From Cyanidioschyzon merolae (Eukaryota): a stretch of DNA of 64,000 nucleotides. Shown here in pieces: positions 1,690 through 58,598 of the stretch (position 1 is its first letter; each line of letters opens with the position of its first letter). The notes under the pieces were generated by a model. That model was not told the origin of the DNA. It saw nothing but the letters and a program-made list of their open reading frames with translations, and made no database searches. The position numbers and the translations under genes are program-made. Location of the stretch: NCBI GenBank assembly GCA_000091205.1, contig AP006486.2. One strand, written 5' to 3'.

Positions 1690-1819
1690 TCAAGCGCACG
1701 GAGGTCTTTTCGCGGTTGCAGCTCCCAAGCAAGCTCTGAAAATATGGTTCCGTTCAAAAAAAGATTCCCTGATACTTTACAAGTTTGTATATGTGTTAGA
1801 AAGCTGCAAGCGAAGATAC

Positions 1820-4345
1820 CGGTCTCGAGCAACACGATGTTCGAAAGTCGAACGTCGCCACCGGTGTACAGTAGTGGCGACCGGCGCCCTAGACAAGAAG
1901 TCGCTAACGGATGTGCAGACATCTCCCAGCCGCTTTGGACCGGCCACCTTCTACTGGTTCCAACTTTTTCTCGTATAGTTCCACTTTGAGAGGTTGTCCG
2001 ATAAAGTTCTCTCTTGTCGGCTCTGGAGGTCTTTTCTCTAGCACCGTACATTTCCTTATATTGATGGCGGCATTAAAGTCTCGGTTCACAAACTCCATCC
2101 GTTTCTTCCATCATTGCTTGTTCTAACCAGCGCAGGTAGTCCACGAACTTTCGTCCTCCTTTCCATTTGCTCCTCCTTCAGCGGTCCGCACTTTGCTATA
2201 TGTTCAGGGGTCCGTTGGCACTTTTCTTTCTCGACCATCTGAAGTGTACAACCCAGTTCATGGTGTGTATAGGACGTTCGAAACTCATCTATCGGTATCG
2301 TAACGAAGCGGCTTGTGCACTCCTTGTACGTTCTTGTTGACGGAGCTGTTGTACTCCCTTTCTTCGACGCCCAGCGTCCTGCCCCATACGCTACCAGGAG
2401 CCTCTGACTTCCATCCTCCTTCAAGGCGTTCAACCGGTTGAAAAAATTCGCAACCGCCCGCTGTTTTCCACAATACAAATTCATTCGCAAACGAGCCCAC
2501 CGGGGCTTGGTATACTCCGCCCACAGTGCATCCCCATGGGCAACACGAACATCCATGAATTTCCGAAAAGGTTCAAAGTCCGCTCCTCGGCTCGTCGCCT
2601 CGCTCAAAGCTTCCAGGTGATCCTTCATTTCTGCATTCCACGGACCAATTTTCTTTCTTGCATTCACTATACCGGATTCTCGATAGTATCTCGCTCTGGC
2701 GAGCCTCAAAAGACGCATGTCTGTCTGGCGTAAGTTGCAATCAGTACCATCATCCGCACGCTTGGGAGCAGCGATGGTTATGATATTTGTGTTTCTAGGA
2801 TCCCCGCCAACGACAAAGTCGTTATCCTGCACCTCCTGCATCGTAGGACCCGCCTCCTTCTCATCTTCATCCTTCGTCACGGGTGCAGCCGAGGACGGAA
2901 CTGAACAATCCGCGTTCAAGCGCCGATTGTGTGCACACAGGGCTACCCCATCGGTTTTGATCATCCCAGTAAATACCTTTTGCTTGCTCACTTTGAGACA
3001 TTTGAAATCGAAGATGTTCTTCCAGTACGTCTTCCGGTTTTCACCGGAGAACTCCTCCCTGCTAACATCGAACTCCGGACAGATCTCCTTCATGATGCCG
3101 TAAAGGATTCTGGAGTCGATAGTCACAAAATGTGACTTGATCTTGCCCAACGGAACCACGTCGAAGCGCTTCCCTACTAGGAAAGCCTTCCGTCTCTCCC
3201 ACTCTTCATTTTTCCCGTTCAGCTTCATCTCTGCCTTGCGTTCGAGTTCTCGGTCCAGAAACACGAAATAGCACAGAATGAGGCGATCGTATCTTTCCTG
3301 ATCTTTGCTCAACTCTGATACCTTGTCTGTTGGATTCGGTAGCCCCAGTACCGCACGATGCTCTTGTATAACCGCACGGATCGCAGAAGCTTCATTCGTG
3401 GTCTCGTTTGACGCCTTCTTGTCGACAAATTCTACCTCATCTTCACGCTTGCGATCTTTCATGATGCCATTGATAATCGTCCATTTTCCATTGCGAGAGA
3501 TGCCCGGGTAGAGTGCAAACACGGTGCGTATCATGAAACGTTCGAGGTTCCCTGTCTCATGGTTCTTCAGATTCGTGAGGTACTTCATCGCCCCATAGCT
3601 GTAGATATCTCGGTCACCCTTGTTTCGAGTATCTTTGAAGCTGTAAAAGGGATGTCTTTCGTGTAGGGCATGTACTTGCTCATTTTTCCCTCCGTGTTTG
3701 CCCTGAACCAAGCATCAGGTGACGAACGAAGGTCTTGTCGAAGATCTCGTCTGGAATCTCGACTGTTTTGATGGCCGCCACGTCGCGATACATCTCCCTC
3801 GCCAGATGCATCAGTCCTGACAACGCCTTGACGATACTCTTAGAGTACGAGTCGAAAAGGTTGTGGATGGCCTCTTGAAACATTTGCTTGTAGAGATCCT
3901 TGATGTAATTAAGAAGACAGGCTTTCACCACCATCTCGTTGTACAGTCGTCTTTCTTGCCGCCTTCGACGTGGGGCCTTCCCTCTTTCGGTTCTTCTTCT
4001 CCTCCTTTTCTTCTGGACACGGCACTGTTTTTTGTTTTTGTTTTCCAGCAGCCGGCGACCCTGGGCCTCCAGGATCGTCGACTCAGTTTTTCATAACTTT
4101 CCATTTTTTTGGTTTTTTTGAAAAAAGCACTCTGTGAACGCTTCTCCAATATACTACGAAAAAAACACTTGACTAGACTTGTTTGAGTTTTGAAACATAA
4201 ATGAACTGAAAAACTATACTTTGCTACGTCCTGAACGGAAATCCGACTTTTCCAGCTGAATAACACGCTACTGATCAAAATCGCGTTTCCCTTCAACAAC
4301 GGCACCGTGCGCGTCGTGTCTCATGCCTGCCAGATCTCCCAGGTG
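1820..4345 (-). mobile_element. Fanzor1-like (eukaryotic TnpB-like) element, family A, copy 1, ~2.5 kb, single ORF, no TIRs
   Basis: Ends were set by where similarity to copy 2 stops. The 5' end (in element sense) reads GCGCACCTGGGAGATCTGGC near 4345. The 3' end reads ...CCGGTGGCGACGTTCGACTTTCGAACA near 1820-1836. No terminal inverted repeats, as in IS200/605-type TnpB elements. Confidence 0.7.
1904..4104 (-). pseudogene. Fanzor1-like RuvC nuclease ORF (~730 aa reconstructed) broken by at least 3 frameshifts; largest intact piece 2086..3711
   Basis: RuvC-I QDNDFVVGGDPRNTNIITIA at ~2770-2826. Zinc finger CTSRF...HHELGC...KCQRTPEHIAKC at ~2185-2319. RuvC-III EFVNRDFNAAINIRK at ~2057-2083 sits in a -1 frame relative to upstream (1-nt deletion relative to copy 2 at ~2095). 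Further frame breaks at ~3700 and ~3930. Confidence 0.7.
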
Positions 4346-5019
4346 CGCTCACTATGCGTCGATTCGTTTTCCGATGTCAACACCTTGCCATAGAACATAG
4401 AATCCAGATTGCGGGATGGATACTGAAATAAATGAGAGCGCTCATTATTCTTCGCTCCACCTTCAAGTTCCATTACTTATACTTCCTCTGGGATCTACTG
4501 GTCGTTTCGTATATTCTATCGTGCACCGAGTGCCTGCCTCGCTGCACCTGCAATAGCGCCCGTATCGTTGGAGCAGCTGCATCACCGAGACAGAAGAGCT
4601 TTGCCATACCACTGAGGGCGTCGGATCGAGGAATACTTCTCCTCACACGGACTCGGAGTGCATAATCACTCTGGTAACCAGCATGCTGTGCTTAAAGGCC
4701 TACTGCCTGTGGCAGCGCGGAGCGATGTACTAGGAGCCACTGCGACCAGCGCAACGCCCAGAAGCAGCGTACCCGCTCCTAGTCCCAGGATAAACTGCGT
4801 TGCGGACGGACTGCTCAGATCGGACCAAAGCACCTGCCACTGGGAGGAGCATGAAGCACGAGGCTAGCTGTCTCGTACGACTCATGGGACCTTCCACCAA
4901 GAAGGTAAACCTTCGGCAATATGGAAAGCTTTCCCCTTTTAACGTTTCTCGTAGAGGGGTAACGAAATTGTTATCTCATTACTGCGTGGTCGCTCGTTGC
5001 TGTTCTTTTTCCTAGAGCG

Positions 5020-7530
5020 CAGTCTGTTAGCACACCTGGGAGATCTGGCGGGCGTGAGACACGACTTGCAACTCGCAGTTGAAGCGAAACACGATCCTGA
5101 TCATTTGTAGACTTGTTACTGTGACTGGCAAGTTGTATTTGCATGAAAGTCGTAGCAAAGTATAGTCTTTCAGTTCTATCATGTCTCAACCACCAAGTAA
5201 CTGTATTCAAGTGATATTTCGCGGTTTATAGCGGAAGCGTTAATCGTGAACTCGTTTGCAAAAATAAATAAAGTTATGGAAATGAAAGTAGAGGATCCTG
5301 GAGGGCCTGTGCCGCCGCGTGCCGAGAAAAATACGGAAAACAGTGCCGTCCATGAGGAACAGGTGAAGACGGTGAAGCAAAAGGGGGCGAACCGACACCA
5401 GAACCTGCACGAAAGACGACAGTACGACGAATTGGTAGTGAAAGCCTGTCTTCTTGAACGTAACGCGGATCCCGTGAAGCAAAAGTTCTGAGATGCCATC
5501 AGAAACCCTACTGCATCTCACTCCTTGAGTGTTTGTAACGCATCTTCAGCACCAATTCATCTGACGAAGGAGATGTACCATGACGTGACGGACATCAAAA
5601 AAGTCGAGGCTCCGGAAGAATTGTCCAACGTGACCTTCCTTCGCCACGAGATGCTTGACACATGGGAAACAACGAGGAGAAATGAGCGAGTGCATGCACT
5701 CTACGAAAATTATGCAGAGTGCCGCTCCAACGGCACTCGATATAGGGGTGACTCAAATGTTCACAATTACGTGGCGATGAAGTACCTCTCGAATCTGAAG
5801 AACAAAACGACCATGAACCTGAAACGCTTCATGATACGCTCCATCTTTGCGCTCTACCCTGGGCTGTCTCGAAAAAAAAGGATATGGGCCATCATGATTG
5901 GCATCACGAACGATCGTCGGGATGCACAGGAGATCGAATTCGTGAACAAGAGGACATCACACAGGAGAAGGAAGACGCTTCTTTGATCCGTGCGGCGATT
6001 CATAAGCACCGCGTGGTTTTGGGGCTTGTCAACCCAACAGAAAAGGTTTCAGATATGAAAAAAGATGTTTTTCCCGCATCCTGCGCTAGTTCGTGTTCCT
6101 GAAGCGTGAACTCGGACGCAAGGCCGAAAAGGAGCTGAATGGGGGAAAAATGGAGAGTTGTTGGAACGGAAAGCTTTCGTACTGGGGGAACGCTTCAATG
6201 TCGTTTCGTTTTGCAACATCTAGTCAATGTTTGTTACATTCGACTTCAGAGTCCTTCATGGCATCATGAGGGAGATCAGTCCAGGGTTCGATGTGAGGAA
6301 GATACGGTTCATCGGCGAGAAACCGGGAGACATACCAGAAGAACATCTTCGATTTGAGACATCTCAAAACGAGCAAGAAAAAGTATTAACGGAGATGATC
6401 GAAACCGATGGAGTAGCCGTATTCGTACACTATAGTCGCTTGAAGGCAGATCGTCCTGTTCCGTCTTCGCTATCGCACTTGGCGAAACGTGAAGAAAACA
6501 AGGATGCGGATCCTGCGACACAGAAAGTGCAGGATAACGACTTTGTCGTTGGCGCGAACCCCGGAAACACGAATATCGTAACCATCGCTGTGCCCAGGCG
6601 TGCGGAAGATGGTACTGACGGCAACTTACGCCAGAAAGACATGTGTCTTTTGAGGCTCGCCAGAGCGAGATACTATCGAGAATCCGGTATAGTGAATGCA
6701 AGAAAGAAAATTGGTACGTGGAATGCAGAAATGAAGGATCACCTGGAAGCTTTGAGCGAGGCGACGAGCCGAGGAGCGGACTTTGAACCTTTTCGGAAAT
6801 TCATGGATGTTCGTGTTGCCCATGGGGATGCACTGTGGGCGGAGTATACCAAGCCCCGGTAGGCTCGTTTGCGAATGAATTTGTATTGTGGAAAACAGCG
6901 GGCGGTTGCGAATTTTTTCAATCGGTTGAACGCCTTGAAGGAGAATGAAAGTCAAAGGCTGGTAGTGGCATACTGAGCAGGGCGATGGAAGACCCGAAAA
7001 GGGTGTACGCCAGCTCCAATGACAAGAGCGTACAAGGAGTGCACGACGTTTCGTTACAATGCCTGTCGATGAGTTTCGAACATCGTATGCACACCATGAA
7101 CTGGGATGTACACTTCAGAAGGTCGAGATGGAAAAGTGCTAGCGGAGCCCTGAACATATAGCAAAGTGCGGACCGCTGACGGAGGAGCAAATAGAAAGGA
7201 GAGCGAAAGTTCGTGGACTACCTGCGCTGGTTAGAACAAGCAATGATGGCAAGAAACGGATGGAGTTTGTGAACCGAGACTTTAATGCCGCCATCAATAT
7301 AAGGAAATATACCGTGCTGGAGACGAGACCTCCAGAGCCGACAAGAGAGAACTTTATTGGACAACCTCTCAAAGTGGTACTATACGAGAAGAAGTTGGAA
7401 GCAGTAGTGGGTGGCCGGTCCAAAAAGACTGCGAGGCGCCTGCACATCAGTTGGCGTCTTCTTGTCTAGGGCGCCGGTCCCCGTTACTGTACACCGGTGG
7501 CGACGTTCGACTTTAGAACAGCGTTGATGG
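5020..7530 (+). mobile_element. Fanzor1-like element copy 2 (mosaic: 5' half family-B-like, 3' ~0.7 kb ~97% identical to copy 1), inverted head-to-head with copy 1
   Basis: Same termini as copy 1 (5' ...GCACACCTGGGAGATCTGGCGGG at ~5029, 3' ...CCGGTGGCGACGTTCGACTTTAGAACAGCG at ~7526). A ~675 bp spacer (4345-5020) separates the two inverted copies. Confidence 0.7.
5246..7469 (+). pseudogene. Fanzor1-like nuclease ORF, copy 2, multiple stops/frameshifts; RuvC-I aspartate replaced by asparagine
   Basis: ORF pieces 5246..5491, 5525..5986, 6227..6862 and 7260..7469. RuvC-I reads DNDFVVGANPGNTNIVTIA (D->N at ~6557). An in-frame TAG sits in the zinc-finger region (~7141). RuvC-III MEFVNRDFNAAINIRK at 7260-7307 is in frame with LPALVRTSNDGKKR upstream. 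Confidence 0.7.
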
Positions 7531-10331: not shown

Positions 10332-11924
10332 AAAATAGAGTCTCCCAAGGTATCCTAGCAAACACGCAAAAAGTACACGATCGTGCGCGCTCTTCAGTAA
10401 CAAAACGCTCCAGCCAATAGGGGAGGCAGCGCAGCGCCCTGCGCCATCCGCCGTCAGCCGTCGACGCGATGCGCGCAGCATTGCTGCACTGCCCGGAAAG
10501 CGCGGCTTCGTATAGCTGGTGCTCTTCCGGAGACTGGGACGCAGAGCGGCACCTACATCGCAGTCGTATAACAGAAGCAACATCAGCAGAAGCACACGAG
10601 GGGAGTACGTTTGATTCGGTATAGCTGGAGGCAGCGTTCAACGACGGTTGCGTACGAGCGACCTGCGTTACGCTAGGGCGCTTTTTCTCGCGTGAACGAC
10701 CGGAAGCGGTTGGTACCAGGAGTGCCAGCACCGAAGCCTCTTGTGGTGTGACTGCTACCCAGAAAGCGTCCCGCTGGTGGCGGGCTCGGTTCAGCGAGCG
10801 CGTGAGTTCGCATCTTCGTGCGTACGACGACAGGCACGTAGAGACGCCAGCGTAACGGGTGTAGTGCGCGCCTCCGCCGGGTAACGCTCTTTACCATAAG
10901 GTCGCTGCTTCCAGAAAAGTGTGGTAACATTCGACTGGCGGTTTCACGAACGTGTCATAGTGACAACTGGAACAGCGTACCACCGGTAAGCATGGGTGGT
11001 ACACCGCGCTACCCGTACCCACGCGACGTCTGGTCGCCAGCTGGCGGCTGGTGGCCGCATCCTCGCGCTTGGCGTAGGAACACTGCAGTGGCAGCGTTCG
11101 GCCTCGTTCTTGTTCTGACGCCGATCTTCATCTACTCTGAGCGGATCTCCGAACGGCCTGAGGACGCCGCACGCCAGATCCCTTGGCGGCCGTGGGTCAA
11201 GGTGCGGGCAAACTCCATGACGTCAGAAACTGAACCCGGGCAGCACTGAGGGCCTTGCTGCAGCATGCGGCGGTGCGTCGAGAGCATCAGCGCTTGTGGA
11301 TGGAGCTTGTGCTTCCAAGTCGATCAAGGAGCGGTCACGCAAGCGACGATATAAACCAGAGATTCCGACGCGGTGAGATTCTTCTCTGAACGGAACGGAC
11401 AGGAAAGAATGGCATTTAAGGGTTCTATGCGGAGCGACGCGGACATCTGACCTGTGTTGCATGCGCGGCGCTCCGTGTATCTGTTTCCATATGAGTGCTG
11501 TTATGCGCTGTGGCGAGCAGTGCCAGCGGCAGCGTCTGGTACCAGTATCGCCGCTAACAACGAGCACACTACACTGCACACGCAGTGCAGCCGACAAGCT
11601 CCAGGACGGCAGGTACCAGCGACACACTTGGAGCAACGGGCAGGTTGCGCTTGTCCGATCGTATCCGTTGAGATGGATGCGCATGCTTGTTCCCGCTATC
11701 GAAAATGCAACGGTTGTGTGTCACTTTCGTGAACCGAGTTCGTCTGCGCCAGTCTTTATCGCGTATCTTGTTGCGCCCGAGAAAGATACCGTAAAAACAC
11801 GAGAAACACACCAAGGGTCCCGCATCACCATAAACGTTGAAGCTCGCGAAAACGTGCTGCCCTGGTATCCCAAACCGCGCAAACGTCAGCCAGCGCCGTC
11901 CGCTCCCGCGACCGTAGAATGCAT

Positions 11925-12140
11925 CGCTGGTGAACGTACAACTCACCTCAGGCCCTTTTATCACTCAGAGAACAACATGACGAAGTATGACTGTGCTAGT
12001 GTCCCGAAAGATGCACCGCTGGCGACCATAAACCGCACCTCAGGCCCTTTTATCACTCAGAGAACAACATGACGAAGTATGACTGCGGTGGTGTCCCACC
12101 AGATGCACCGCTGGCGAACGTACAACTCACCTCAGATCCT
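11925..12140. repeat. ~91-bp minisatellite, ~2.3 tandem copies
   Basis: Unit ACCTCAGGCCCTTTTATCACTCAGAGAACAACATGACGAAGTATGACTG...GATGCACCGCTGGCGA.. repeats with period ~91 bp (starts ~11946, ~12037, partial ~12128). Confidence 0.8.
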
Positions 12141-12239
12141 TCCACCGAACTATAGACAACAACACCCTAGACGTCAAAGCTGCCGTCAGCGACTGCAGCC
12201 GCAGGATGAGCGCGTGAACATCCCAGCTCCTCCAACGTC

Positions 12240-17914: not shown

Positions 17915-18416
17915 CGTCGAATAACGAGCAAGGAATGCGCTGCGGCTGGAGCGAAGCGCCGGTGGGCGTCCACCGGCGCAGCTCAGGGGGAACGATCGTT
18001 GAGGCAGGCGCTTTCGTGGCGTACGCTTTATGGGCCTTTACCTCGAGTGTATTTTATCCTCAGGTGTGGGTAACCAATTGCTTATCCATGGTGCATAGCG
18101 GATGCGTTAGAAGTGCGTTCATTGGAAGGAAGAAAGGCTGTCATCGCCGGATGCGATAAAAAATACCAAAAAAATGTCTCTTGTCGCCGACTGCCGAGCG
18201 ACGGCGATAAAGAAAAACAAGAGGGCATCTAGGCGAGGAAAGGCGTTCGCCCGGCCTGGCGATGGCCAGACTCTAGGGGTACAGGGGGGTGAGGGTGAGG
18301 GGGGTGTTCGACTCTGAGCAATCCCTGAATTGGTGCGTTCAACCAGCGGCACTGCATATAAGGAGTTCATCAACGAAGACTTTTCACACCACGATCGATA
18401 CCAAGCGACGGGTGTG

Positions 18417-18560
18417 GTGCTGGAGACGAGAAACCCGAGGAGCTGACGCGATCCAGCCCAGTCGGACAGCCGCTCACGGTCGACTTGTACAACGACAAGT
18501 TGGAATCAGTACCAAGGGGCCGGTCAAAAAAAGTCGCGAAGCACCTGCACGTCGGTCTCT
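18417..18560 (+). repeat. solo degenerate 3'-terminal fragment of the Fanzor element (RuvC-III-downstream region)
   Basis: ctggagacgagaaacccgaggagctgacgcgatccagcc...gttggaatcagtaccaaggggccggtcaaaaaaagtcgcgaagcacctgcac aligns with copy-2 7315-7455 (ctggagacgagacctccagagccgacaagagag...gttggaagcagtagtgggtggccggtccaaaaagactgcgaggcgcctgcac). Confidence 0.5.
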
Positions 18561-18707
18561 CTACATACACGCTACGGTCGGAATGCACTTTGGTGCTGCA
18601 TCGGTGGCGGCATTCGTACCGCATAGCGTAGCACATACCGCTGCCTAGTCAGGCACGATGCATCACGCGAGGTCGTCCGCTGCTACGCGAAACGCGCTTC
18701 CAGCGTC

Positions 18708-23769: not shown

Positions 23770-25817
23770 AATGAATAGTAGCGCCTACTCCTAAACATTA
23801 ATAAACGTAAAACAGAACACCGACTGTTCCAGTGGTCAACAGCGAGGCATCCCGTTGGGTTGCGTATGGCCGGTTTCGGAAGAGTGCTAGCAAGAACGCC
23901 TTGAAAGAATGGAATGATATACCCATATGAGAACAAACCTAACTAAATCCGTACAATGGCGTGTCCATTGAAATCCGGGGCGCTTCCGACGATCACCAGC
24001 ACCAGCCTTGTGGGATTTTTCTGCGACTGCTTTCTTTACTCCTTCTCTCTTTGGCTTTACATATGCCGATCATCCCTTTTTCTCCAGCTTCGTTGTCAAC
24101 AGTCGAAGGATGTTGGCAGCGCCTCTCATGTCTGGACCTCGATGCTTCTGGCTGTTCTTGACGCATTTCATGCACGAGCGGAAGTTGCGATCTCTGTTTC
24201 ACTTGCTATTGTCATCTTCTTCGTAGACATTCAGGGTGCGCGGTTCACCACAGGACCAGTTCGGTATGATCAGGTCTTCTCATACAACCACTAAACCTCC
24301 TCCTATGAGAGCCGCTCTGTGCCGCGTGAGCACTTGCTTCCTTGATCAGCAGATGCCCTCGACGGGTTCAGAGCGCTCGTCTTGATTTCCTCGCATCCGA
24401 TTCCGCCCGCCGTTGCCGTATCCTGCAACCAATGGCCTCTTCTGGCTGGTCCCGTCGGCGAGTACGCTGTATGAAGCACACGCGCTCGCACACTGTTTCA
24501 TTCGACAGAGGATTTGCGGAAAGCGAAGTTCCCAATGACGGAACAAGTCCCGGAAGTCGAGTTAGGGCTGGAGAACGAGTCGAGAAATTTCGATCCGTAT
24601 TCGCTCCCTTTCTACAAAGCGATGCGCACGCTCCACTGGGAGCGACCCTTGCACGACTCAAGTCCGTGTCCAAGACCCATTTGCATGGAAGCAGATGAGA
24701 CAGAGGCTTCATGGGGTGTATCCCATTCGATTTGTCCTACTGCTTTGGAATGCAATTTCGTCGATGGCCGTAAAGAGCAGAGGATTTTTCTTTGGAACGA
24801 AATCTATTATTTGACGTGAAGAGTGCTTTCAACGTTCGGCATGCGCTTGCGAACAAGCCATCTGGAATCGACGTCAGGTTTGCTCCTCGTCGACACAGCA
24901 GCGAGAATTGCAGCACCCACGAGTTGTCTTGAAACAGAAGATTCGAAGACTTGAGGCATGCGTGAATCCCGCATGCTACACGTGCTGACAGCAGAAGCGT
25001 TGCTGCGTGAACCCATGAATTGGATATGGATATTGGATCTTTCACAAATCGTTTTTCGGTTGCGTCGCGAATCACCTCGATGACGGTGACGGAACGAATT
25101 GCAGTGGCAAAGCGTCGAAGAATGCGCTTCGAAACGACAACCGAGAACCTTAACACTACGCAAGGATCAATAAGCCCTGATCGCTGCACTTGGAATGTCG
25201 AGGTTGAACATCGAAACAAAAGTTCGGAGAAAAATCAAAAGGCAAGAACAGAGCAAGCATATCAGGCTTTCTTTTCAATCATGCATCAGTGGAGTCTGGG
25301 TACAACGCAGTCTCCTGCGCTAAAACGCTACCTGGTGAGTCACCCGCGAGTCTCGTGCAAAGCTCTGGTGCGCAGTATCGTGTGCAAAGAGGGTGTTCGG
25401 TAGCTCTTAGCGTGCGTACGGCATCGAGCGTGGGAAGAGCTGCCAGTGCTTCAAAAAATGGATATACAGCTGCACCCGTAACGCGCATTCGGTTCCGTTT
25501 ACCGTACTGGACGGAAAGCGTTCGTAAGCGGTTGCTGCGGGCCGGTCAGAGATGCCTCCCGAGGTGCCTCTGCCCATATCATGTTGCTGCGTTCGAGCAG
25601 AGCAGGTTTCGGGCCTCGACACCGCATCGTTCCAATGTTGGGCAGTGCGAAAGGCATGCTGTTGTACGCAATCTGGATTTGCTTGCTCACTGATGATGCT
25701 GGTTAGCTTCGCTGACGCTGCGTCCCTACACGTAAACGTTCTCCATTCGATGGGAGCAAGTTCCCAGACTGCAGCCACCAGGGATCGACCGAGTATTATG
25801 CCAACGGCAGTATATGC

Positions 25818-30002: not shown

Positions 30003-30883
30003 GCGTCAGACTCAAGTGGAACATAGGAATGCTTGCTTCGTTCGTCGTTCTCGACATCGACGAGCTTGGTTCAGATGTGCAGCATAGACATTCGAAATGC
30101 ACGGATAAGGGCTCACGGAAGCATGCGTCGTGTTGAGATTCGCCGACATCGTTTCTGAGTGGCTTCTTCGACGGTTTACCGCTGGAATTCGTTGCGTCTC
30201 CGAAACGAGGATGGCTCGCGACACCCTCGATGCAGGGCTCTTAAAGCGACCAATACGATCATCGGATTCGTTCGTACGCGGATCTATTCTTCCCCTTTTC
30301 TCAAGTGTGGCAAGCTGAAATCACGCCTTCCTCATGTTTTCGATCTTTTTGTGTTTCAAGGAAACAGGTGAACAAGGCAACTTGAACCAATGTATTGACT
30401 AGGAGCGTACTCGAACTCGTCCTTCGACGACTTGCCCACAAACTTATGCCGCATGCTCTCTGAAATCGTCAAGCGAAATCATTGACCCTGTACTTATGCA
30501 ATATCCTAGTCTCTTGGTGGCTATCGGCGATACAACATTCTACTCCAGCATGATATTTGTCACAGGGTACGCTCCCAGAGGTTCTAGTCTCTAGTGTTTG
30601 CAGGGAAGATGTTCTTGGACTCGAAGTCGAGTTCTCGCAGCAATCGCCTTCATTCGGGAGAGCGTCAGCGCTTCGCATGAACGCATCCTGGCCGGATCTA
30701 GGTTTCTTGACGTGATCTCAGGCCTGGATTTTTCCGTTCAACAGTTGTTACATCGCGGACAACATCGCGTTCCACAAATCCGGTTCTATTCGGAAACAGC
30801 TGCGAACAGAGCACGGTTCATCGTACAGACGCCATCTTATTCTCTGTGATTCAACCCGAGTTAGATCGTCACCAGGGTCTCGA

Positions 30884-31345: not shown

Positions 31346-31527
31346 ACCAGTGCATTGAAAGCGAGAGATGTGTGTTGAATGAAACGAAGAAGGCGCTGCG
31401 ATCACAGAGGGCATACATAAACACCCACTCACAGACGCCTCCGAGCCCTTTTCGACGGGCCGCCTGCTATCGGCTACAGTTTTTATCGCAGCGCACTTCG
31501 TGTTGAGCGGCTGCCCGGTAAGCTTAG

Positions 31528-32000
31528 ATGGCGGCAGCTCTGCGAGTCTCTTGTCGTCAGCACCGCACACATCATCTGGTATTGGTGGCAGCATTGAAAT
31601 CTGGGTTCTCGAGCTCCATGCGTTTATTGCCGCTGAATGAACTCGCCAGCGCAAGGATTCCTCTAATTTGTACCCTCTGTGGAAATACAGTCTCACCATC
31701 GTCCCGTCGGGCAAACACCTCTTCTCGCATATACCCCATCGTCTTCGTCACTTGCGTTTCTTCGCTCGATTGTCGGCGAGAAGAAGATTTTTTCGTTTTG
31801 TTTTCGGGCACCCGGCGATGATGGCCCTCCAGGATCCGCGACTTTCCGGTCCATACCTTCCCATTAGATTTTTATTTCTTCAAATGAACGCACTTTGAAC
31901 GCTTCTCCAATAAACCGCGAAAGCGCATTTGATGACACGGAAGTGAGCGTGCAATGCAATTAAGGTGAAAGACTATGCCAGCGCGAGCATATGCTAGACC
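31528..32000 (-). mobile_element. internally deleted non-autonomous derivative (mini-element 1) of the family-A Fanzor element
   Basis: The 5'-end-homologous part (31800-32000) aligns with copy-1 3900-4300 (e.g. ccctccaggatccgcgactttccggtcc vs cctccaggatcgtcgactcagtttttc; gaacgcttctccaata shared). The 3' part retains a decayed RuvC-III block (ENPDFNAATNTR at ~31581-31607, minus strand). About 1.8 kb of ORF is missing. Confidence 0.55.
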
Positions 32001-33483
32001 AATGCATTGATGAACATGGCCCGTAACGTACGGGCACACGACACAGGCCGCGTGCGGACGGACGCTGCTCTGCCCCCTGTTTACCACATAGGAGCGGAAG
32101 GAGTAGGACTCGGCTGTTCGAACACCAGATCTAAGCATTCGTATGCAGAGTGAGCGAATCGAGGATCTGTTGCTCGATGGACCATGCACGCTGTGCAAAA
32201 GCTCGCTGTACTGATTTCAAGCGAATAGGACACATAGCGGTCGTTGTCCATACAACCAACTCGCTTCGGAGAGCAGTTCATGTACATCAGTGCATCGTGC
32301 ATCATCTTGCGGGAAGGTTTTGGCGGGTCTGTTCGACACAAAACCTCAGTTGTCTTACAGGACGCTCCTATGCGATTTGCAGCACGAAATCAAAAAGTAT
32401 ATACGAGTTATCGGAATCGATACACGAAAGCATTACTTGGGCGACGCACTCGAGCATTCAGGACGGGCATGATTGCAGAAGCTGCGCCCTGCAGTCCACG
32501 AATTCCTCTAGGGGCTTCGATTTCCCTCTTTACAAATTAGTCACAAAGATTCGAGCTGAGCTCGCTAACAACGGTCAGGTATCATCCACGTTCGATTTTG
32601 AATACCGCCTGTTGCTCATATACAGACCATAATGCCGAACAAGCATCTAGTTATTCTCAGAATGCCGCCGAGCAGACTCATACAGTACCCATCAGCCGTG
32701 ACGCGACTTGGTCGCTGTGGGGCACTCTGTCTGAGCAAAGCGCGAGTCCCCTGGCAATAGAGCCTCGCGCCTCGACAGCTCATGGCAGGCGCCAGACGAA
32801 CACATGCGAGAGCTGCACAAGTTCAGCGAAGCGCTTCCCCTGTTCCGACCTTACCCCGGTGTCGATACCCGTACACGTTCACGAAAGTAGACTTTGCAGC
32901 CAGACCCGAGAGCGATTGCAACCGATTGACACTAAAACAATGGTTTTCGTTCGAGTACCCTGTGACACGTGAGAGCGGCCGGGTCCTCGCCGCTGCCTCG
33001 TTCCAGACCAGCTACTCTGCAGCTGCGTACGCTACGAACAAGAGCCAGCAACCCACGCGCACCGTTTTCAACCGCCCGCGTGTGGAGCAGAGGCATCACA
33101 AGAATCGTCTTTCCACTCGGGCCCCAGTGTTCGTGACTCGTACACAGCAGCTCGAAGCGAAGTATCAATCGCCGAAGCGAGCTGCTCCACGAGACGCAGT
33201 TTCTCGCTGAGTTCTTGAGTTTTCGACTGCAGACTCTCCACGGTGGAGTTCATGTCCCTGACAGCAAGTAAGAGTTCCTCTAAAGCGGCTATAGACGCTT
33301 GTTCCGGTGCTTGCATTACCCCGCTCTCTACACAGGAAAAGCGCACAGTGTTTTGTCCAGCAAACTGAGTGCCAATCTAACAGCGGTGTCCGCGCAGCTG
33401 GGCGGCGCCGCCTCCGCCACGTACGACAGCAGAGCGAACGGGACGGGACACGCAACCCGCCGCGTGCGCGCCTCCGTTATGCT

Positions 33484-33990
33484 TTTCCATCTCAATTGCG
33501 TTCCATGCCCAGGTGCGTTTCATTGAATGCTCTCTCGTGGTTCATAGCAGAGGCGGTGGAAGTGCGTCCCTTTGATGCGCTAAACATCTGAGGGAAATGG
33601 ATGGGCGTGAAAGTCGGGAGTCCTGGACAGCTTCTATAGCCGGGTGTCCGAAAAAGAAATGAAAATAGTTTTCCCTCGCCGACAATCGAGCGAGGAAGCG
33701 CAAGTAACGGCGAAGAAGACGACGAAGAGGGTAGACCGGCGAGAAAAGTGTTTATCCTGCGGGAGAGTCACGAGACTGTTGCTGGACAGAGGCCAAGAAC
33801 GCTTGGGATCCTCGCACCGGTGCAATCAACCAGAGGCAATGCACGTACGGAGTTCGTGAACCGAAACGTAACATTGCCATCATTACGCGACGATGCTCGT
33901 GGAGCTGACGCGAGCCAACTTTGTTCGTGTAGCTCTAGCTCCAGCAGAATCGGCAAACGCTCAAACACGCAGGGCCTGGTGAAATCCCAA
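33484..33990 (+). mobile_element. internally deleted derivative (mini-element 2) of the family-B Fanzor element (copy-3-like)
   Basis: 5' part tccatctcaattgcgttccatgcccaggtgcgtttcattgaatgctct aligns with copy-3 49595-49650 ctaaactcaattgtgttccatcgccaggtgcgtggaatcaaatgctct. 3' part has decayed RuvC-III TEFVNRNVT and gagctgacgcgagccaactttgt matching copy-3 51770-51800. Confidence 0.5.
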
Positions 33991-34039
33991 GTTGTCCAAC
34001 TGATGGACGTTGCTAGACGTGAGGGGAACCTCTTCAATC

Positions 34040-34650
34040 ATTCGACAAGGTGAATGAAGTTGTCTGCGCCTTCTATTCGCGTTCGATCGTACATAGGACG
34101 GGCGCCCTGCTCGGCGAATACCCATAGACGCTCCGACCGTTTCGTCCAAAGGGAATCTCATGGACTGAGAAAAACAACGTCCCTGTGCTTCATACCGAGC
34201 GCGAAGATCCAGGGACGCTGCCGTTGCGATGATCTCCGCAGAAGATGGTCGTGAAAGAACCAGGACTCTGTTTTTGCGATTATACCCCAGTGTTTTCAGG
34301 ACCACACGAGCAAGCTGCTGAGAACCAGTGACGCCCGTAGCGACTAATATCGTCGCTTTTGCATCCCGCTTGGTGATCAGCGGGTCATTTTTCTACTATA
34401 GAACGCGAGCAGTCTTTAAAAATATCGGTTGCTGGCGCGGAGCGCATATCCTTCTCTCTTTCAGTATTCCACAACCATTTGAGCACTGTGGTATGACTCA
34501 CCTGAGGGAGGAATGCAATCCTGCTTGCACTGCGCAGTAAACAACATATATCCGATAGTCAATTCGTCTAGAATCCATGCGGTACCTGGCATCGTGATGT
34601 TGATCGCCATCTATCCACCGCAGCAGGCGTGGTCCACCATTCAGTCGAAA
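34040..34650 (-). repeat. dispersed ~0.6 kb repeat, copy a, containing an NmrA/SDR-like Rossmann N-terminal pseudogene fragment
   Basis: ~75% identical over ~550 bp to 45990-46580 in the same orientation. Minus strand encodes ...KATILVATGVTGSQQLARVVLKTLGYNRKNRVLVLSRPSSAEIIATAASLDL (NAD(P)-binding GxxGxxG) with no in-frame ATG and decaying sequence after ~60 aa. Confidence 0.5.
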
Positions 34651-34835
34651 CACGACCATGGCGGACGATTCGTTGGATTGCACCGCAGCCGCTGCGCGCC
34701 CGCGCATTGTGCATTCATGGTATTCAGCCCTGAGTCTATGGTTCGCGACTAACAAGATATTCGTGAGCCCTGGAGACTTGAGTGCTTCTCTAACTCTGCA
34801 GACGCCTTGGTGAGCGGGCCTTTCGAAGCGTTTTC

Positions 34836-44785: not shown

Positions 44786-45229
44786 TTGCGTTGCCGAAGA
44801 AGAGCGGGACGCGGCCCTGCGTTGCTAGACTTTCACGCACCTACGCTCAGATTGTGGGCGAGCTTTAGGCGCACGTCAGGCGCAGCGCGCTGCTGGGGCG
44901 CTCTTCTCCGTGGGTACGACGCCGCAGCCGCCGCAGCCGCCGCAGGCACCCTCGCTGTTGGCTCACGGAGGCGGTGGCGATGTGCGCGCGTCGGGCGGCA
45001 GGTCATAATGCGAGTGTCCTGTTTATTCCATAAAGTTCTGTTTCATCAGCGACACGCTGTGGTATGCGAAAGTGTTGGGCTGGCTCTTGTGCATGGACCG
45101 ACAACCGTGTTGGCATGCAATGGAACAGGTACTTTACCAAGACATACCATTGAAACAAAAGATGTCTTCAGGGAATGGAGTATATATACGCACCAGCAGA
45201 CGACTCCCAGCCTTTATTGACCGGCCCAC

Positions 45230-45800
45230 TGTTATAGTTTTTCAGTTTATCTAGGTACAGTTCGGGTGCCAAAGACTGCCCCACGACGTTGGATCGCTTC
45301 AGCTCTTCGAGTATCGTCTTCAGCACCGCATATCGTCTGATACAGATGGAGATGTTGAAGTCTTGCTTGAATATACCATCGCAGGGATTGCTGGCACTTG
45401 TACCCTCTCTGCCGCAACAGGCTCGTCATTGTCCCGTCAAGCAAACTGCCTTACTCGCCTATCTGCCCTTTTCTTGTTAGTCATTTGCTATTCTCTGCTC
45501 GATGGTCGGCGTGAAGAGGGTTCTTCTTTTTTGTGAAATTCGCCTATGAGAGTCCATCAGGATCCCCGACTTGCGTGTCCATAACTTTCCTTCATTTTTT
45601 TAAATCTTCAAATGAACGCACTTGTTTATGCCCAAAGGTGAGGAGTCTCCCCCGACTGCGAAGGACTTGTGGAAGAAAGATGACGCGTGCCCCAATGTCT
45701 ACATGTGCTGAACGCTTCAGCGAGTCGCCCAGTCCAGCGATCATTACGTTTTACCATAGAAAACACTCTAGCCATGGGTTTGAACCAGGCAGCGCGCTAA
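45230..45800 (-). mobile_element. internally deleted derivative (mini-element 3) of the family-A Fanzor element, same deletion junction as mini-element 1
   Basis: 45290-45640 aligns continuously with mini-element 1 31560-31915 (e.g. ccatcaggatccccgacttgcgtgtccataactttcc vs ccctccaggatccgcgactttccggtccataccttcc; tcttcaaatgaacgcact shared). The 45640-45790 stretch continues into the 5'-end region (ctgaacgcttc, aaaacactctagcc vs copy-1 aaaacacttgactag). Confidence 0.5.
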
Positions 45801-45989
45801 GGAATGAAGAGCAGCTCTGCCCGCGGATAGAATCGGCAAATGCACGAGCGCAAAGGGAATGGTGATATGCCACGCTGTCCAATGAGGAAAGTCTCTAGGA
45901 GTCAGGGAGAAAAGTCTTCAATGATTTGAGAAAATGGTTGGTGCTATCGTATGCGCATTCTCTACGAGCGGAACTGAGGCCACTACTGG

Positions 45990-46580
45990 AATCCACTACA
46001 TCTAGAACAGATGATGGATTCCTGGTTCTCTTCGCGTTCGATTCTGCATACCACGGTCTCCTTCAGTGCGAATGCCCATATACGCTCCGACCGTGTCATC
46101 AGAAGCAAGTCTCACCGACTGAACCAAACAGATGTCACTCAGCCGCAAACCAATCGCGAGATTCCACGAATGCTGTCGTTGCGATTTCGGTGGAAGATGG
46201 CCATGCGTGAATTGGTCACTTTTTGCGTCTGTATTCCAGTGTTTCGAGGACCAAACGAACAAACTGTTGGGAAACAGACACGCCTCTGGTGGCTAATGTC
46301 GTCGCTTTTGCTTTCCGTAGAGTGATCAACGTGTCGTTTTCAACCATGGACCGGTTGCATTTTTTGAAAATATCGGTATTGGACGCGTGGCCCATCTACT
46401 TCTTTCTTTTAGTGTTCCTCAGCCATCTGCGAGCTTTTTTATGACTGACCTGGATGAGGCATGCAGTCCTCCTTGTACTGTACAGTAAAGCGTATGCCCT
46501 GCAGGCAATTCGTCTACGATCTGTGCCGAACATGGAGATCGTGATTACGATCTCCAGCGATGCACTGCGCAAAACTATTC
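45990..46580 (-). repeat. dispersed ~0.6 kb repeat, copy b (NmrA-like fragment TLATRGVSVSQQFVRLVLETLEY...)
   Basis: Homologous to 34040-34650 (shared strings gcgaatRcccataKacgctccgaccgt, cgttgcgat, tcgtcgcttttgc, aaaatatcggt). Immediately follows mini-element 3, as copy a follows mini-element 2. Confidence 0.5.
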
Positions 46581-48560
46581 GGCAACACTCGGCGCGGGTG
46601 AAACATAACTGAGTTGAAAGACTATAGCGTGCAGATGCTCAAGCTCGTGTAACCTTTCACTGTCGTCAACATCAGTCCTTACAGGCTTTTTCTGCGTGTG
46701 TTTCCTTTCCGTTTATATTATCTTTGGCTATAAATACAACGGTATCGGGTTTACCGCTAGCTCCATTGGCAACAGCTGAAGACGCTGATGGAAGCGCTCA
46801 GGTCTCGATTTCTGCCGTTCCGGGTATTGTTCATGCATTTTATGTACAGAAGGAATTTGCGATTTCTGTTGGGTTGCACGCGTTCCTGTGCTGTGCAAAC
46901 GGCCTTGGTAGGCACTCTGCAGCGGTGACATTGGAACGTCGCCAGGTGCTCCCATACATTCACTCTATATGGCATTCTCCGGTGATCACCGTATGGAGTT
47001 TGAACGCCCGCAGCATCGCCCGGTACCTGCCCTTGACGGGCAAAGAAGGCTCCCGTCGATGCCGTCCTCCGATTTAGCGTACTGCATCGTACTCTCCCGT
47101 TACGGGCTTGTTCCAGATGCTGGCCCGGGAGAGTACTCTGTCTGCTGCAGATGCATGTACTTGCTGTTCTATTCGATATACAGGCTTTGTCGAGCTTGGT
47201 TTTGTACGTCATGAAAGAATTGCAGGGAGGAAAAGCTAACCTGGTCAACAAGTCGGGAAACTTCGATTCGTCCCGCTTTATCCGTGCAAATCGGTAACGC
47301 ACACTTGACTGGAGGCGATCCCTGGGATCATTACAGTCCGAGTCCAGCACCCTTGTCCATCTGAAGATGAGAGACGACAGCATCTGGCAACGCATCCTGT
47401 AATAGGGATCATGCTGATGTCGAATGCGGTCTTGTCGATAGCCACGAAAGAGGAATGTGTTGGATTTCGGACGGAATTGCTCATTGTACGTGACAATTTC
47501 AGTGAACTTTAGGAATGAGCGTGTGAAGAGGTCATCCAGGGACAACCATTTTGTTTCCTGTTCAATAAAGCTGCGCGAATCGCTGCGTCGACGATTTGCG
47601 ACGAAACAGAAATATCGAATACTTGATGCAAGCGTGATTTGAGCATGGAACTCGGAAGTGAGCGAAACGTGGACGCATGTACTCATGATTTGGGTAATGA
47701 TATCGGTTACTTTAGGAATCCTTATTCGATAGCGTTGCGAATCGCCTCTATTCCGTCAAATTCATGAATTCCAGCGGCTAAGCTTCGGAGCCACATCAGA
47801 TAGACGACCGAGTATCCTGGACCTTCGTATGAATCCGTATGTCGGTATCGCTGTACTTCGGGCGTAGAAATTTGACATTTATGGATAATTTGGGACGAAA
47901 TCGAGTGACGGAGAACAGAGCACGCAGTTCACTTTTCGAATTAATCTTGTACGTATCTCGCACGAGACAACTTAAGTGCCTGCCTGGATATTCTCAATAT
48001 TTCTCGAAGGCTTAAGATTAGCTCCCGCTTGTCGTGACTGAGAAACGGAGGCGTTGCCGGTGGCGCTCAGCGGTCCCAAGGTGTCGTGATGCAACTCGTT
48101 GCGCTCTGAACGGTCGAACAGGGTTTGGGCCCCTGAACCCGTGCCTCTCCGAGCTGATCACTTTCTGGCATCGAAGGCATTGGAACAGGCCCTAGCCGAT
48201 AAGATGCAGCACAGCAACCTCATTGGAATCGTTATCGAACTTGAGGCGCACTTTCCGTCACTGCAGACTGAAGATGCTTCAACTCCATCCAGCTGAGGAA
48301 GCTGCAGTTCGCAGCTGTGCAACAGTGGTTGTGCCCCAGTGAGGCACTCTTCGGATATTTGTTTTCATATCGGATGCTTTACAAGTGCACCGGCCTGTCC
48401 GAACTGAATGAGTCACAGCACAATCTGAGTATCGCCATGCTCTTTACGTTCCCATCTAATACAGGGCAACCTGGCTCCATGACCATCTTCTCTTGTACCA
48501 GATATCCGCACCAGCGACATTCCCTGGTGTCGTTGTATTCGAAACTGCTGCTCGCTCGCC

Positions 48561-49587: not shown

Positions 49588-51960
49588 GTGCATTTCTATC
49601 CTCTAAACTCAATTGTGTTCCATCGCCAGGTGCGTGGAATCAAATGCTCTTCCGCGGTTCATTGCAGACGTGCTCGATGTGGGTTCATTTGAAGAAATAA
49701 AAAGTTCTGCGAATGGAATTGGAGACTTCTGGAAGCCTGATTTCGCCGGCTGCCGCAGAAAAACGAAAAGCAGTGTTGAGCGAAGAGGAACAAGACAGCA
49801 TGAAGAGGCAGAGGCAGGAGGCCCTGCGTCAAAAGCTGCTCGAAAGATGAGAGTACGACGAGACGGTCGTGGACGCCTGTCTTCTTGTACATGTCAAGGA
49901 TCCGTATGAGCAAACGATGCAAGCGGACGTCAGAAACCGTGTCGAGTCGTACCGCATAAGTATGATAAAGGCCGCTCCAAGACTGATGTATGTGGTAACG
50001 AAAGTGTATCGCGACATAACGCACGCGGAAACAATCGAGTTTCCAGAGGAAATTTCCAACGTAACCTTCATCGGCCACCTGACGCTTGCCACCGGGGAAA
50101 CGTCGAGGTGAAATGAGCGGGTGCATGGCCTCCATGAAAATTACGCCAAATACCGCCTCAACGGCACTCGATACAGGGATGACTCGGGTGTTTACACCTA
50201 CGGGGCGTTGAATTACCCTACGAACCTGAGAAAGCATATGAACATGAACCTGAAACGCTTCATGGTACGCGCCGTCATTGCGCTGTACCCGGGCCTCTCT
50301 CGCAAAGGGATACGAGTCATCATCCGTGGCATCACGAATGATCGACAGCATGAACAGGAGATCGAATTCTTCCACAAGAAGACATCACGCAAGAGAAAGA
50401 ATGAAGCTTCTGTAATCCGTGCGGCTATTATTGAGCACCGTGCAGTCTTGGGGCTTGTCAACCTACAAGAAAAGATATCAGATAGGAAAAAAGATGAAGA
50501 AAGATGTTATCCCCTAATCCTGCGCAATTTCGTGTTTTTTGACCGAGAACTCGAACGCAAAGCCGACATGGAGCTGAGTAGGGGAAAATGCGCAGTCGGA
50601 GAGACGCAAGGCTGCGGTTCCGGGGAGGCGCCTCAATATCGTTCCGTTATGCTACGTCAAGTCACGCGTTGTGACAATCGACTCCACAATCCTTTATACC
50701 ATCATGAAGGAGATCAGTCCCGAGTTCAATGCAAGCAGGGAGAAGTTCACCCGCGGAGACGGGAAAATCTACCGGATGAATATCTTCGATTTCAAGCGCC
50801 TCAACACCAGCAAGAAAAAGTTATTCACTGGGATGATCGAAAGCGATGGAGTAGCCGTGTGTGGAGACTATCGGCGCTTGAAGGCGGATCGCCCAGTTCC
50901 GTCATCGGCTTCGCCCTTGGCGAAGCATGAAGAAAACAAAGAGGCTGGCAGTACGAAACAGGAGGCGCAGGAGGACGACTGTGCCGTTGGCGCGGACCCG
51001 GGAACACGAATATCGTACCCATCGCAGCACCCAAGCGTGCGGAAGACGGTATCGACGGCAACTTACGCCACAATGACATGCGACTTCCAAAGTACTTGAG
51101 AGCGAAAAATTGCCGATAATCGGGAATAATGAATGCAAGGAAGGAAAGTGAGACATGGAATGCAGGAGTGAGCGCGCACCTGGAAGCTATGAGCAATTTC
51201 GCGAGTCGTGGATCGAACTTTCATTTCTTTCGTGAATTCATGGAATATCAAGCTGCTCGTGACGAGGAGCTGTGGAAATAGCAAACAGAACCGCGATGGG
51301 CTCGTCTGCGAATGAATCCGCACAGAGGGAAGCAGCGCGCGTTCGCGAAATTTTTCAAACAGTTGATTGCCCTCATGGAGGACAAGAGTCAAAGGCTCAT
51401 ACTAGCATACGGAACTGGGCGCTGGGCACCCGGAAAAGGGTGTGTACCCGCCCCGTCGACGAGAGCGTACAAGGAGTGCGCACGATGTTTTGTCACGATA
51501 CCGGTAGATGAGCTCCGAACATCGTATGTGGATCATGAACTGGGATGTCCACCTCCGAGAGTCGAGATGGAAAAGTGCCCGTGGAGCCCTGAGGATATAA
51601 AAAAGCACGGAGAGCTGACGGAGCATCAAATGGCTCAGAGGGCGCGAGTTGGAGGACTCCTTGCATAGGTGAGCTCTACCAACGGTAACAAACGCACTGA
51701 CTTCGTGAACCCAGACTTTAACGCCGCTATCAATATCAGACGACGTGCTGTATTGGAGAAGAGATATCCCGAGCTAACGAGAGCCAACTTTGTCGGGCAA
51801 CCTCTTAAGGTGGCACTCTACGAGAAGCATTTGAAACCGATCGCAGCGGGCCGGTCGTAAACGGCCGGGAGACGCCTGCCGGGTGGATACCTATCTACCC
51901 TATGTGGCCGTGGAACATTTTTCGTTTCACTGACAAATGAGTTTGCGCTGGTAGCGCGTA
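49588..51960 (+). mobile_element. Fanzor1-like element copy 3 (family B, ~55-60% protein identity to family A), 3' end approximate
   Basis: 5' boundary was set by the end of homology with mini-element 2. The 3' region gggccggtcgtaaacggccgggagacgcctgc parallels the family-A ggtggccggtccaaaaagactgcgaggcgcctgc. Confidence 0.6.
49700..51860 (+). pseudogene. Fanzor1-like nuclease ORF copy 3, broken into pieces (49869..50111, 50121..50930, 50671..51099, 51312..51668, 51669..51860)
   Basis: N-terminal MYVVTKVYRDITHAETIEFPEEISNVTFIGHL and NERVHGLHENY...LYPGLSRKG...IEHRAVLGLVN...FVFFDRELERKA are homologous to copies 1 and 2. RuvC-I DDCAVGADPGTR has a frameshift inside the motif. Zinc finger KECARCF...HELGCP...KCPWSPEDIKKHG. 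RuvC-III DFVNPDFNAAINIRRR at ~51705-51737. Confidence 0.65.
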
Positions 51961-57800: not shown

Positions 57801-58598
57801 TTTCCAGTGATGCATTCATGACGACTTTCACGCATCACGAGCGCGGGTGCTCGCTGCATGAGGTAAACAAAAAATGAGCGTTAAACAGAGAGTGATGCAC
57901 GCGATGGTGTACAGTTCGCTGACTGAACGTCAGATAACGAGACAGTCGAAGAGGCGTTGCTTGTCATCGCATGATGCCAACCGCGACCATACGCGCAAGC
58001 ACCTTCAGCACCGAGGCTCTGCGCCTCGGTAGGCATCCGAATATATCTCGTGCTTCCAGAGCGTGCAGTAGTTTTGTTTCGAGCATTTTATCGAGTGAAT
58101 TCTTTAGCACTAAATGTGGGCGTTGTGCTTCAATGCTGCAGACTTGCAGTGAAAAACAACTGTAGCCCGGAGAGTGCAGTGGATTCTCACCTCCAGTACG
58201 GCACTGGTGTGGAACGGTTCAGCAATCCAGCTGCACGCCTGGAACGCCGCACACATGCACCGTGAAAGAATCTCCCAGGGGAATTAGCTGATGATACTAA
58301 TGCTCGGTAATTCGATGGTGCTGAGTATACGAGCACGAGCATCCAAAAAACAATACACTCTTCAAGGGCCTGTATATAACGCAGCTTCCAACGCCGGCAC
58401 TTTGTGTGCGTTATGGCGCACTGAGTCACCGGCCGATGAACCGATCCTTTCGCGTGAGAGAGCTCCCACTAACGCTGACCTCTTCGCTGTGCAGAATATG
58501 CGGCATCGGTGCGTTCTGCTTGACGCACAACCTTCCTAAAGACAATGCATTTCTAGCGAGCGAACCTCTGACGCAGCGCGGGTAAACGCAGTTACGTG

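Follow-up and report, generated by a model that had tools for sequence, protein, structure and literature searches.

CMe-1A is a Fanzor1 element of about 3 kb from the red alga Cyanidioschyzon merolae, known in some 150 copies that are each about 80% identical to the consensus (Bao & Jurka 2013, PMC3627910). The element has no terminal inverted repeats (TIRs) and was left unclassified as a transposon; a short companion element, TE-N2_CMe, is equal to its 5' 635 bp (PMC3627910). Non-autonomous elements carrying Fanzor1 have also been described from Chlamydomonas, where the Helitron2-type CRe-1/2/3 show varied internal deletions and frequent 5' truncation, their intact 3' ends are over-represented, and their insertions adjoin T-rich sequence (PMC3627910). 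Where Fanzors have been characterised, their guide RNA overlaps both the 3' end of the open reading frame (ORF) and the right end of the element, and TTA or TTTA TAMs are known for some of them (PMC10530073). Two other groups of short elements invite comparison. Classical eukaryotic MITEs are small, non-coding and derived by internal deletion from a longer element. PATEs, which derive from IS200/IS605 elements of bacteria and archaea, are short and non-coding, keep both ends including the TnpB guide-RNA end, bear defined end hairpins recognised by the Y1 TnpA, and are moved by proteins acting in trans. A published MITE survey reports none from C. merolae (PMC3964958).

Here, we analysed a window of 64,000 nucleotides, i.e. 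the whole stretch of DNA presented, which contains three full-length relatives of CMe-1A together with four much shorter elements (m18, m31, m33 and m45, hereafter minis). We conclude that the minis are very probably non-autonomous elements, derived by deletion from a CMe-1-type Fanzor1 transposon in a Cyanidioschyzon-like red alga, and that they make up a family which is small and old. They constitute a new subfamily within the already known CMe-1 Fanzor1 family; this subfamily is real, small and extinct, and such an end is nothing unusual for a DNA transposon. No earlier description of it was found in the searchable literature, which does not cover the Repbase library.

The parent Fanzor1 family

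The window has a G+C content of about 55% and contains long intron-free eukaryotic genes, among them those for an OCRL-type inositol 5-phosphatase, a Mut7-type exonuclease, Kae1 and a PP1-type phosphatase. An Rfam search of the whole window returned tRNA-His alone, and the same gene was detected by ARAGORN. Three repeats of about 2.3-3.15 kb with broken ORFs were also present (full-length copies 1 to 3, Table 1). The longest ORF remnant, of 541 aa (2086-3711, minus strand), belongs to copy 1 and was used as the protein query; it has 156 homologues, nearly throughout from JGI metagenomes. In this ORF, as well as in an alignment of 18 homologues, the RuvC motifs DPG, DEFRTS and NRDFNAAxNIR (NRDFNAAINIR) follow one another in this order, and the RuvC-I Asp, RuvC-II Glu and RuvC-III Asp expected of a Fanzor1 protein are all present in the parent ORF. 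The only result of a single-sequence PDB search was angiogenin, a chance match, so a profile search was needed for the Fanzor1 assignment. The profile of homologues matched the Fanzor1 structures of Parasitella (9cf0, E=6.5e-10), Spizellomyces (8gkh, E=2.9e-7) and Guillardia (9cer, E=7e-3). Neither the window ORF nor four homologues had a relevant match in Pfam scans, and the precomputed label PF26935, which is merely DUF8286, was uninformative for the parent ORF.

Compared with the 3,169-bp CMe-1A consensus taken from the supplement of PMC3627910, the full-length copies are 80-84.5% identical; the parent family is therefore one that is already known, and the DNA comes from C. merolae or a very close relative. 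Copies 1 and 2 are arranged head-to-head with 24 bp between their 5' ends (4348 and 4372). Copy 1 starts at consensus position 660, and copy 2 has the TE-N2_CMe-like 5' 635 bp; the two are 78.5% identical overall and 87-91% in the 3' half. Copy 3 and a full-length copy on metagenome locus L011 make up subfamily II, which is defined by its 3' tail. Among the full-length copies in the window, copy 3 is the closest relative of the minis, with which it has in common the 5' start and the 3' terminal ~55 nt; this tail, also found in the L011 copy, is unlike that of CMe-1A. Some full-length copies carry an internal tandem duplication at profile positions ~1555-1633 (L003 10540-10618 and L004 6497-6575; P0009 and P0016), which in P0009 and P0016 lengthens the acidic Lys/Glu-rich linker just before the RuvC-I motif.

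Two further remnants were observed on the plus strand of the window. The first (57037-57874) is Fanzor-like, far more decayed and without mini relatives; its similarity to the profile covers positions 276-334 (E=3.7e-5) and 525-571 (E=1.2e-5), with a ..FTHHERGCSL.. piece, and it may be what the preliminary description of this DNA called family B. The second (25504-25698) weakly matches (E=0.008) the terminal ~190 nt of the Fanzor element, GGCCGGTC among them, and may be a solo 3'-end fragment.

Table 1. Positions of full-length copies, mini-elements and adjoining sequences in the window
Feature	Position	Strand	Remarks
Full-length copy 1	1834..4348	-	CMe-1A positions 660-3145, 84.5% identity (window 4348-1856)
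Full-length copy 2	4372..7525	+	Complete CMe-1A; 82% over consensus 1-3145 (window 4372-7502); ORF broken
Full-length copy 3	49597..51932	+	Decayed, subfamily II; 80% over consensus 800-3084 (window 49609-51879)
m18	18029..18597	+	Complete; junction 18268-18287; orthologues in L014, L016, L022
m31	31379..31976	-	Complete, ~598 bp (profile matches); orthologues, 98.8-100% identical, in metagenome loci L009, L015, L021
m31 5' arm	~31695-31976	-	Includes former ATG at 31864
m31 junction	31673-31694	-	
m31 3' arm	31379-31672	-	RuvC-III remnant 31587-31607; GGCCCGTC motif 31449-31461
m33	33478..33942	+	Standard 5' arm; junction 33772-33792; 3' arm cut at ~33942, without last ~150 bp and right end; orthologues in L006, L009, L015
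Inverted left-end-plus-X fragment of another X-type element	33943..34660	-	X at 33946-34621; left-end-like sequence 34634-34652
m45 core	45150..45623	-	Junction 45403-45424; full 3' arm, GGCCGGTC at 45213-45226; 5' arm portion begins 45 nt upstream of former ATG
Insertion X	45624..46545	-	~930 bp, no ORF; splits m45 5' arm (BLAST, alignments, ORF list)
m45 true 5' terminal ~85 nt (left end)	46546..46631	-	Upstream of insertion X; nhmmer match to profile positions 225-306, E=4e-5
m45 whole span	45150-46631	-	Including insertion X

The mini-elements and their deletion junction

The four minis were found with a DNA profile of the three full-length copies, which each of them matches in two blocks (profile positions ~230-445/473 for the 5' block, and ~2275/2288 onward for the 3' block). 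A 561-position profile built from the four minis finds exactly these four in the window. In each mini, ~280 bp from the 5' end of a Fanzor1 element (the 5' UTR and about 55 codons) are joined to ~310 bp from its 3' end (about 92 codons with the RuvC-III motif, and the 3' UTR). The result is a short element (570-600 bp) with no conserved ORF and one junction, present at no fewer than eight loci.

The preliminary description had singled out two regions (31528-32000 and 45230-45800) as aligning to each other continuously, and had placed a family-B analogue at 33484-33990. The alignment was confirmed: m31 and m45 are 66.5% identical over 490 columns of a local alignment (31416-31895 vs 45181-45623, both minus), with a score of 141 as compared to 20.8 +/- 2.0 (maximum 28) in 100 shuffles, and BLAST finds a 253-bp core at 70% (E=4e-27). 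On the full-length profile, the m31 region matches at 229-445 and 2275-2571 and the m45 region at 314-377 and 2350-2529, the E-values of these two-block matches ranging from 7.5e-36 to 5e-4. While both regions are thus real, their extents had to be redrawn as given in Table 1; the real 5' end of m45 lies as far away as 46631 because the ~930-bp insertion splits its 5' arm. The supposed analogue belongs to the same mini family and has the same junction, being merely truncated at its 3' end (m33). As m18 had not been listed before, there are four minis in the window instead of two and an analogue. The 5' arm, for its part, reaches about 165 nt (~55 codons) into the ORF, more than the ~100 nt assumed earlier.

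On full-length copy 3, the mini profile maps to 49604-49871 and then to 51631-51880, with breakpoints at about 49871 and 51631, 1,760 bp absent and no filler. The extent of the deletion (~1.76 kb) agrees with the ~1.8 kb of skipped ORF first proposed. In coordinates of the CMe-1A consensus, the minis keep about 787-1070 and about 2829-3092; their direct matches to this consensus cover ~787-969 and ~2840-3092 alone, at 66-75% identity. The notion of a shared deletion junction could be extended from the two original regions to all four window minis and to all eight loci, within the resolution of the alignment, and the junction sequence GAGACTGT..ACAGAGG occurs in 8/8 distinct loci. The breakpoints show a microhomology of 2-3 nt (TGG); a local repeat allows them to be placed only to within about 15 nt. 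In five copies, translation continues across the junction with the Fanzor frame kept on either side (e.g. ..RRDNDEHVLTQRGRVLAIPPLKSSIRGNKRMEFVNRGFNAV..), from which it follows that the deletion is in frame (~1,758 bp, ~586 codons). Lost with it were residues ~56-641 of the 734-aa Fanzor1, the RuvC-I Asp and RuvC-II Glu among them. A splicing origin of the deletion was rejected, since the missing segment neither starts with GT nor ends with AG. In addition, all eight minis have a 12-14-nt indel (..TCTTCTCGCCGAC..) that is absent from the full-length copies. Identity of the minis with TE-N2_CMe was ruled out by consensus positions: TE-N2_CMe represents only the 5' 635 bp of CMe-1A, whereas the minis start 786 bp inside the consensus and join a 5' piece to a 3' piece.

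Exactly at its deletion junction, m18 contains an 18-nt G-rich insert, GGTGAGGGTGAGGGGGGT (18268-18310). This mini occupies most of the space between two divergent genes, from an ORF end at 17914 to an ORF start at 18708.

Insertion X sits 45 nt upstream of the former Fanzor ATG. It is found at the identical position in two minis (m45 and L017 7534-8160) and in the full-length copy of L011 (7538-8479). The mini-specific junction and indel are present in the X-bearing minis and absent from the X-bearing full-length copy, so X must have passed between elements through recombination or site-specific insertion, or else have been precisely lost. Comparison with the CMe-1A consensus ruled out that X is TE-N2_CMe. 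Elsewhere in the window, m33 (plus strand) and a left-end-plus-X fragment (minus strand) meet tail-to-tail at ~33942, forming a unit of about 1.2 kb (33478-34660) with a Fanzor left end at both extremities, which was possibly made by recombination or aberrant transposition.

Copies at other loci, element ends and origin of the minis

Metagenome contigs were scanned once with a degenerate pattern spanning the junction, which matched three of the window minis and gave 0 matches in 100 window shuffles. Before the scan, the pattern caught 4/5 independently known minis, a sensitivity that leads to a rough total of about 9-12 mini copies, small beside the ~150 parent copies. The scan yielded 18 matches on 17 stretches. 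Altogether, 24 mini copies were found by profile in the window and the metagenome loci; grouped by their flanks, they represent 8 loci. Flanks of the same locus are 97.75-100% identical (mostly 98% or more), and between different loci no flank similarity of >=75% over >=80 bp was detected. Three of the eight are window loci seen again in other samples (97-100% identical including flanks), m45 is another, and the remaining four are new (L019/L020, L011/L018, L008/L010/L013 and L005/L007/L012/L017). Seven loci lie on contigs of 12-176 kb from the single sample Ga0078972.

Further copies, on which the propagation claim of the preliminary description hinged, thus do exist: the same junction recurs at four more metagenome loci, which brings the number of insertion sites to at least eight in one population. 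The common junction, the eight non-orthologous loci with unrelated flanks and the mini-specific indel of 12-14 nt together lead to a single deleted ancestor which was then copied as a mini, as had been supposed. Other decayed forms, e.g. 5'-truncated copies, occur at one locus each, and the mini junction alone recurs at many. It might be argued that each short copy lost its middle separately from a full-length insertion, given that the full-length copies in the window are all pseudogenes and that other truncated or rearranged copies exist in related loci. Such independent decay is, however, effectively refuted and deserves next to no weight: the junction is the same in 8/8 loci within alignment resolution, these loci have in common an indel not seen in full-length copies, and 2-3 nt of microhomology do not suffice to bring about the identical deletion repeatedly. 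As for copying of one mini along with its surrounding DNA, i.e. segmental duplication without transposition, the lack of flank similarity among the eight loci (>=75% over >=80 bp) makes it highly improbable, even though 4 of the ~8 known loci fall within 28 kb of one another in the window and full-length copies 1 and 2 form a head-to-head pair. The sole similarity between flanks, that of m33 and m45, is insertion X, which is part of an element and is situated on one side of m33 but on the opposite side of m45. The pattern is the one expected if a single deletion was followed by copying, and both alternatives are in effect excluded.

The common 5' end of the minis starts near (T)AGTCTTTCACCTCAATTG, and their common 3' end runs to ...TTTCGTTTCA. 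As in CMe-1A, end alignments of eight minis and the full-length copies revealed no TIRs, the two termini not being inverted copies of each other. Target-site duplications were not detectable either, with no repeated flank at six complete copies whose end positions are uncertain by a few nt. TT is found immediately upstream of the 5' end in 7/10 independent insertions. It is reminiscent of the TTA/TTTA TAMs of some Fanzors and the T-rich targets in Chlamydomonas, a match which is only suggestive because the end is uncertain by those few nt. Hairpins near the 3' end are predicted in single sequences and are not conserved in the alignment. No TnpA-like or other transposase gene was found in the window or in the metagenome loci examined. 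Canonical Helitron ends were not recognised at the mini termini, and fragments consisting of the 3' end only exist.

The likeness to MITEs and PATEs drawn in the preliminary description holds in functional terms, but not as regards TIRs, target-site duplications and a transposase, none of which was found. Like classical MITEs, the minis are small (~570-600 bp), non-coding and derived by internal deletion of a longer element; unlike them, they lack TIRs and target-site duplications and have a low copy number (at least eight loci). With PATEs they share their shortness and the presence of both ends, whereas they reside in a eukaryote and conserved end hairpins could not be demonstrated in them. 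The CRe-1/2/3 deletions are varied, in contrast to the one junction common to the propagated mini subfamily, which has no recognised Helitron ends or protein.

From the above, the course of events was as follows. One ancestral element of the subfamily II type lost ~1,758 bp in frame, and the shortened unit was afterwards copied into no fewer than eight sites whose flanks are unrelated; the 64-kb window contains four of these sites. A subset later carries the ~930-bp insertion in its 5' arm, one copy was truncated, and decay has since been neutral. The copying was presumably carried out by the parent family's own machinery, supplied in trans, with the retained 5' and 3' ends probably sufficient in cis. 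As the 3' arm spans the omega-RNA region of characterised systems, a Fanzor protein produced elsewhere could once have relied on guides encoded by the minis to reinstate those that had been excised. At present, the minis are in all likelihood inert relics. No empty (pre-insertion) site was found among the mini loci compared; the exact ends, and transposition itself, are therefore deduced from the distribution of copies.

5'-truncated copies of the parent family with intact 3' ends were observed at L004 5443-6500 (minus), L004 6959-8004 (plus) and L005 6353-6856 (plus), and they echo the over-representation of 3' ends of Fanzor1 elements in Chlamydomonas. The two L004 copies form an inverted pair, both starting near profile position 1555. 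The family is dense in the window, with three full-length copies, four minis and extra fragments per 64 kb, as compared to ~150 parent copies in the ~16-Mb genome and a genome-wide estimate of only about 8-12 minis. This suggests that the window is a transposon-accumulating region or a site of local hopping.

The 3' arm, coding constraint and age

The 3' arm of the minis spans the region that encodes the guide RNA in characterised Fanzors, and the omega-RNA scaffold initially proposed to lie there was deduced by this analogy. Folding analyses did not bear it out. The Rfam search of the whole window gave no match in the mini 3' arms, and for the minis together with subfamily II, RNAalifold computed -5.7 kcal/mol and a covariation term that was positive, which lends no support. 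Subfamily I folds better (-46 kcal/mol), with a conserved 13-bp long-range helix, again without covariation. Single sequences gave folding z-scores of -0.28 to -1.23, their energies being no better than those of shuffles. The earlier statement that all copies retain the 3' ~250 bp is false for m33, which has lost the last ~150 bp. Moreover, since all minis stem from a single deletion event, the retention of the 3' end is one observation and not repeated selection.

The 13-bp complementarity of subfamily I connects the ORF end (GCAGTAGTGGGTGG) with the 3' UTR (CCGCCACTACTGT; e.g. 1856-1960, minus strand). It is nearly invariant in CMe-1A-type copies, uninformative for covariation, and absent from the tail of subfamily II and the minis. 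Mostly kept in the minis are a short GGCCGGTC..GGCTGG hairpin and the CCAG.GGCA / TGC..TGG long-range pairing of the consensus fold.

The minis are 50-65% pairwise identical in full-length global alignments, which include some flank, and 64-69% in longer local alignments, i.e. ~50-70% overall, the value varying with the method and the span compared. A neighbour-joining tree built from the 3' arms is star-like and resolves neither the order of mini and full-length lineages nor the placement of the X-bearing copies. Pairwise differences at the three codon positions amount to 0.344/0.338/0.391 in the minis and 0.18/0.142/0.231 in full-length copies of subfamily I, and the RuvC-III Asp is gone in most minis. 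Between samples, the cores of m18 and m33 are 96.9-98.5% identical versus 98.25-100% (mostly 99% or more) for their flanks. The near-even differences at codon positions and the cores being more variable than the flanks speak for neutral decay; judged by their sequence, the mini copies appear to be dead. A mini-protein of ~150 aa was rejected as well: its frame is open in several copies, but the wrong frames are open to the same degree (140 aa in m31), and the almost equal evolution of codon positions argues against coding constraint.

These data also bear on the possibility that the minis were kept for a function of their own, be it as trans guide-RNA (omega-RNA) genes, as promoters, or as a source of the ~150-aa mini-protein. 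We consider such exaptation decidedly unlikely. The covariation term is positive, folding energies do not exceed those of shuffles and no Rfam family is matched; codon positions evolve almost equally and most copies have lost the RuvC-III Asp; from sample to sample, the mini cores vary more than the flanks do; and m33 lacks the terminal 150 bp. Set against this, the 3' arm does span the guide-RNA region of studied Fanzors (PMC10530073), the deletion preserved the reading frame, m18 takes up a bidirectional intergenic region, and the hairpin and long-range pairing described above are mostly kept. It is likewise unlikely that the minis were, or that a few of them still are, guide-RNA-only modules, in which the guide of the omega-RNA would be the mini's own 3' flank, an intact CMe-1 Fanzor1 would cut the emptied site, and repair would restore the mini. 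In a variant of this proposal, the in-frame fusion of ~150 aa (basic N-terminus plus RuvC-III segment) may once have modulated Fanzor. If the minis were such modules, they would be a eukaryotic counterpart of the bacterial PATE-type elements riding on TnpB.

Read as a propagated family of deletion derivatives, the minis imply that ~280 bp of the 5' part and ~310 bp of the 3' part of a Fanzor1 element would have satisfied the cis requirements for no fewer than eight rounds of copying in a eukaryotic host, the nuclease gene not being needed in cis. They could therefore serve as a compact natural substrate for studying how transposons without repeats and target-site duplications move, and for testing the action of Fanzor in trans on non-coding relatives. 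Beyond this, nothing about them departs from routine transposon biology; the family is a known one, and its mini copies look dead.

Apart from the Fanzor1 family, the window contains another dispersed repeat of ~300 bp, unrelated to the CMe-1A consensus, with copies of ~68% identity at 24884-25219, 30066-30360 (inverted) and 47556-47790, and also in L010 and L008. At 11912-12187, three tandem units of 92 bp (100%, 86% and 62% identical to the first) lie partly inside the ORF 11461-12072.
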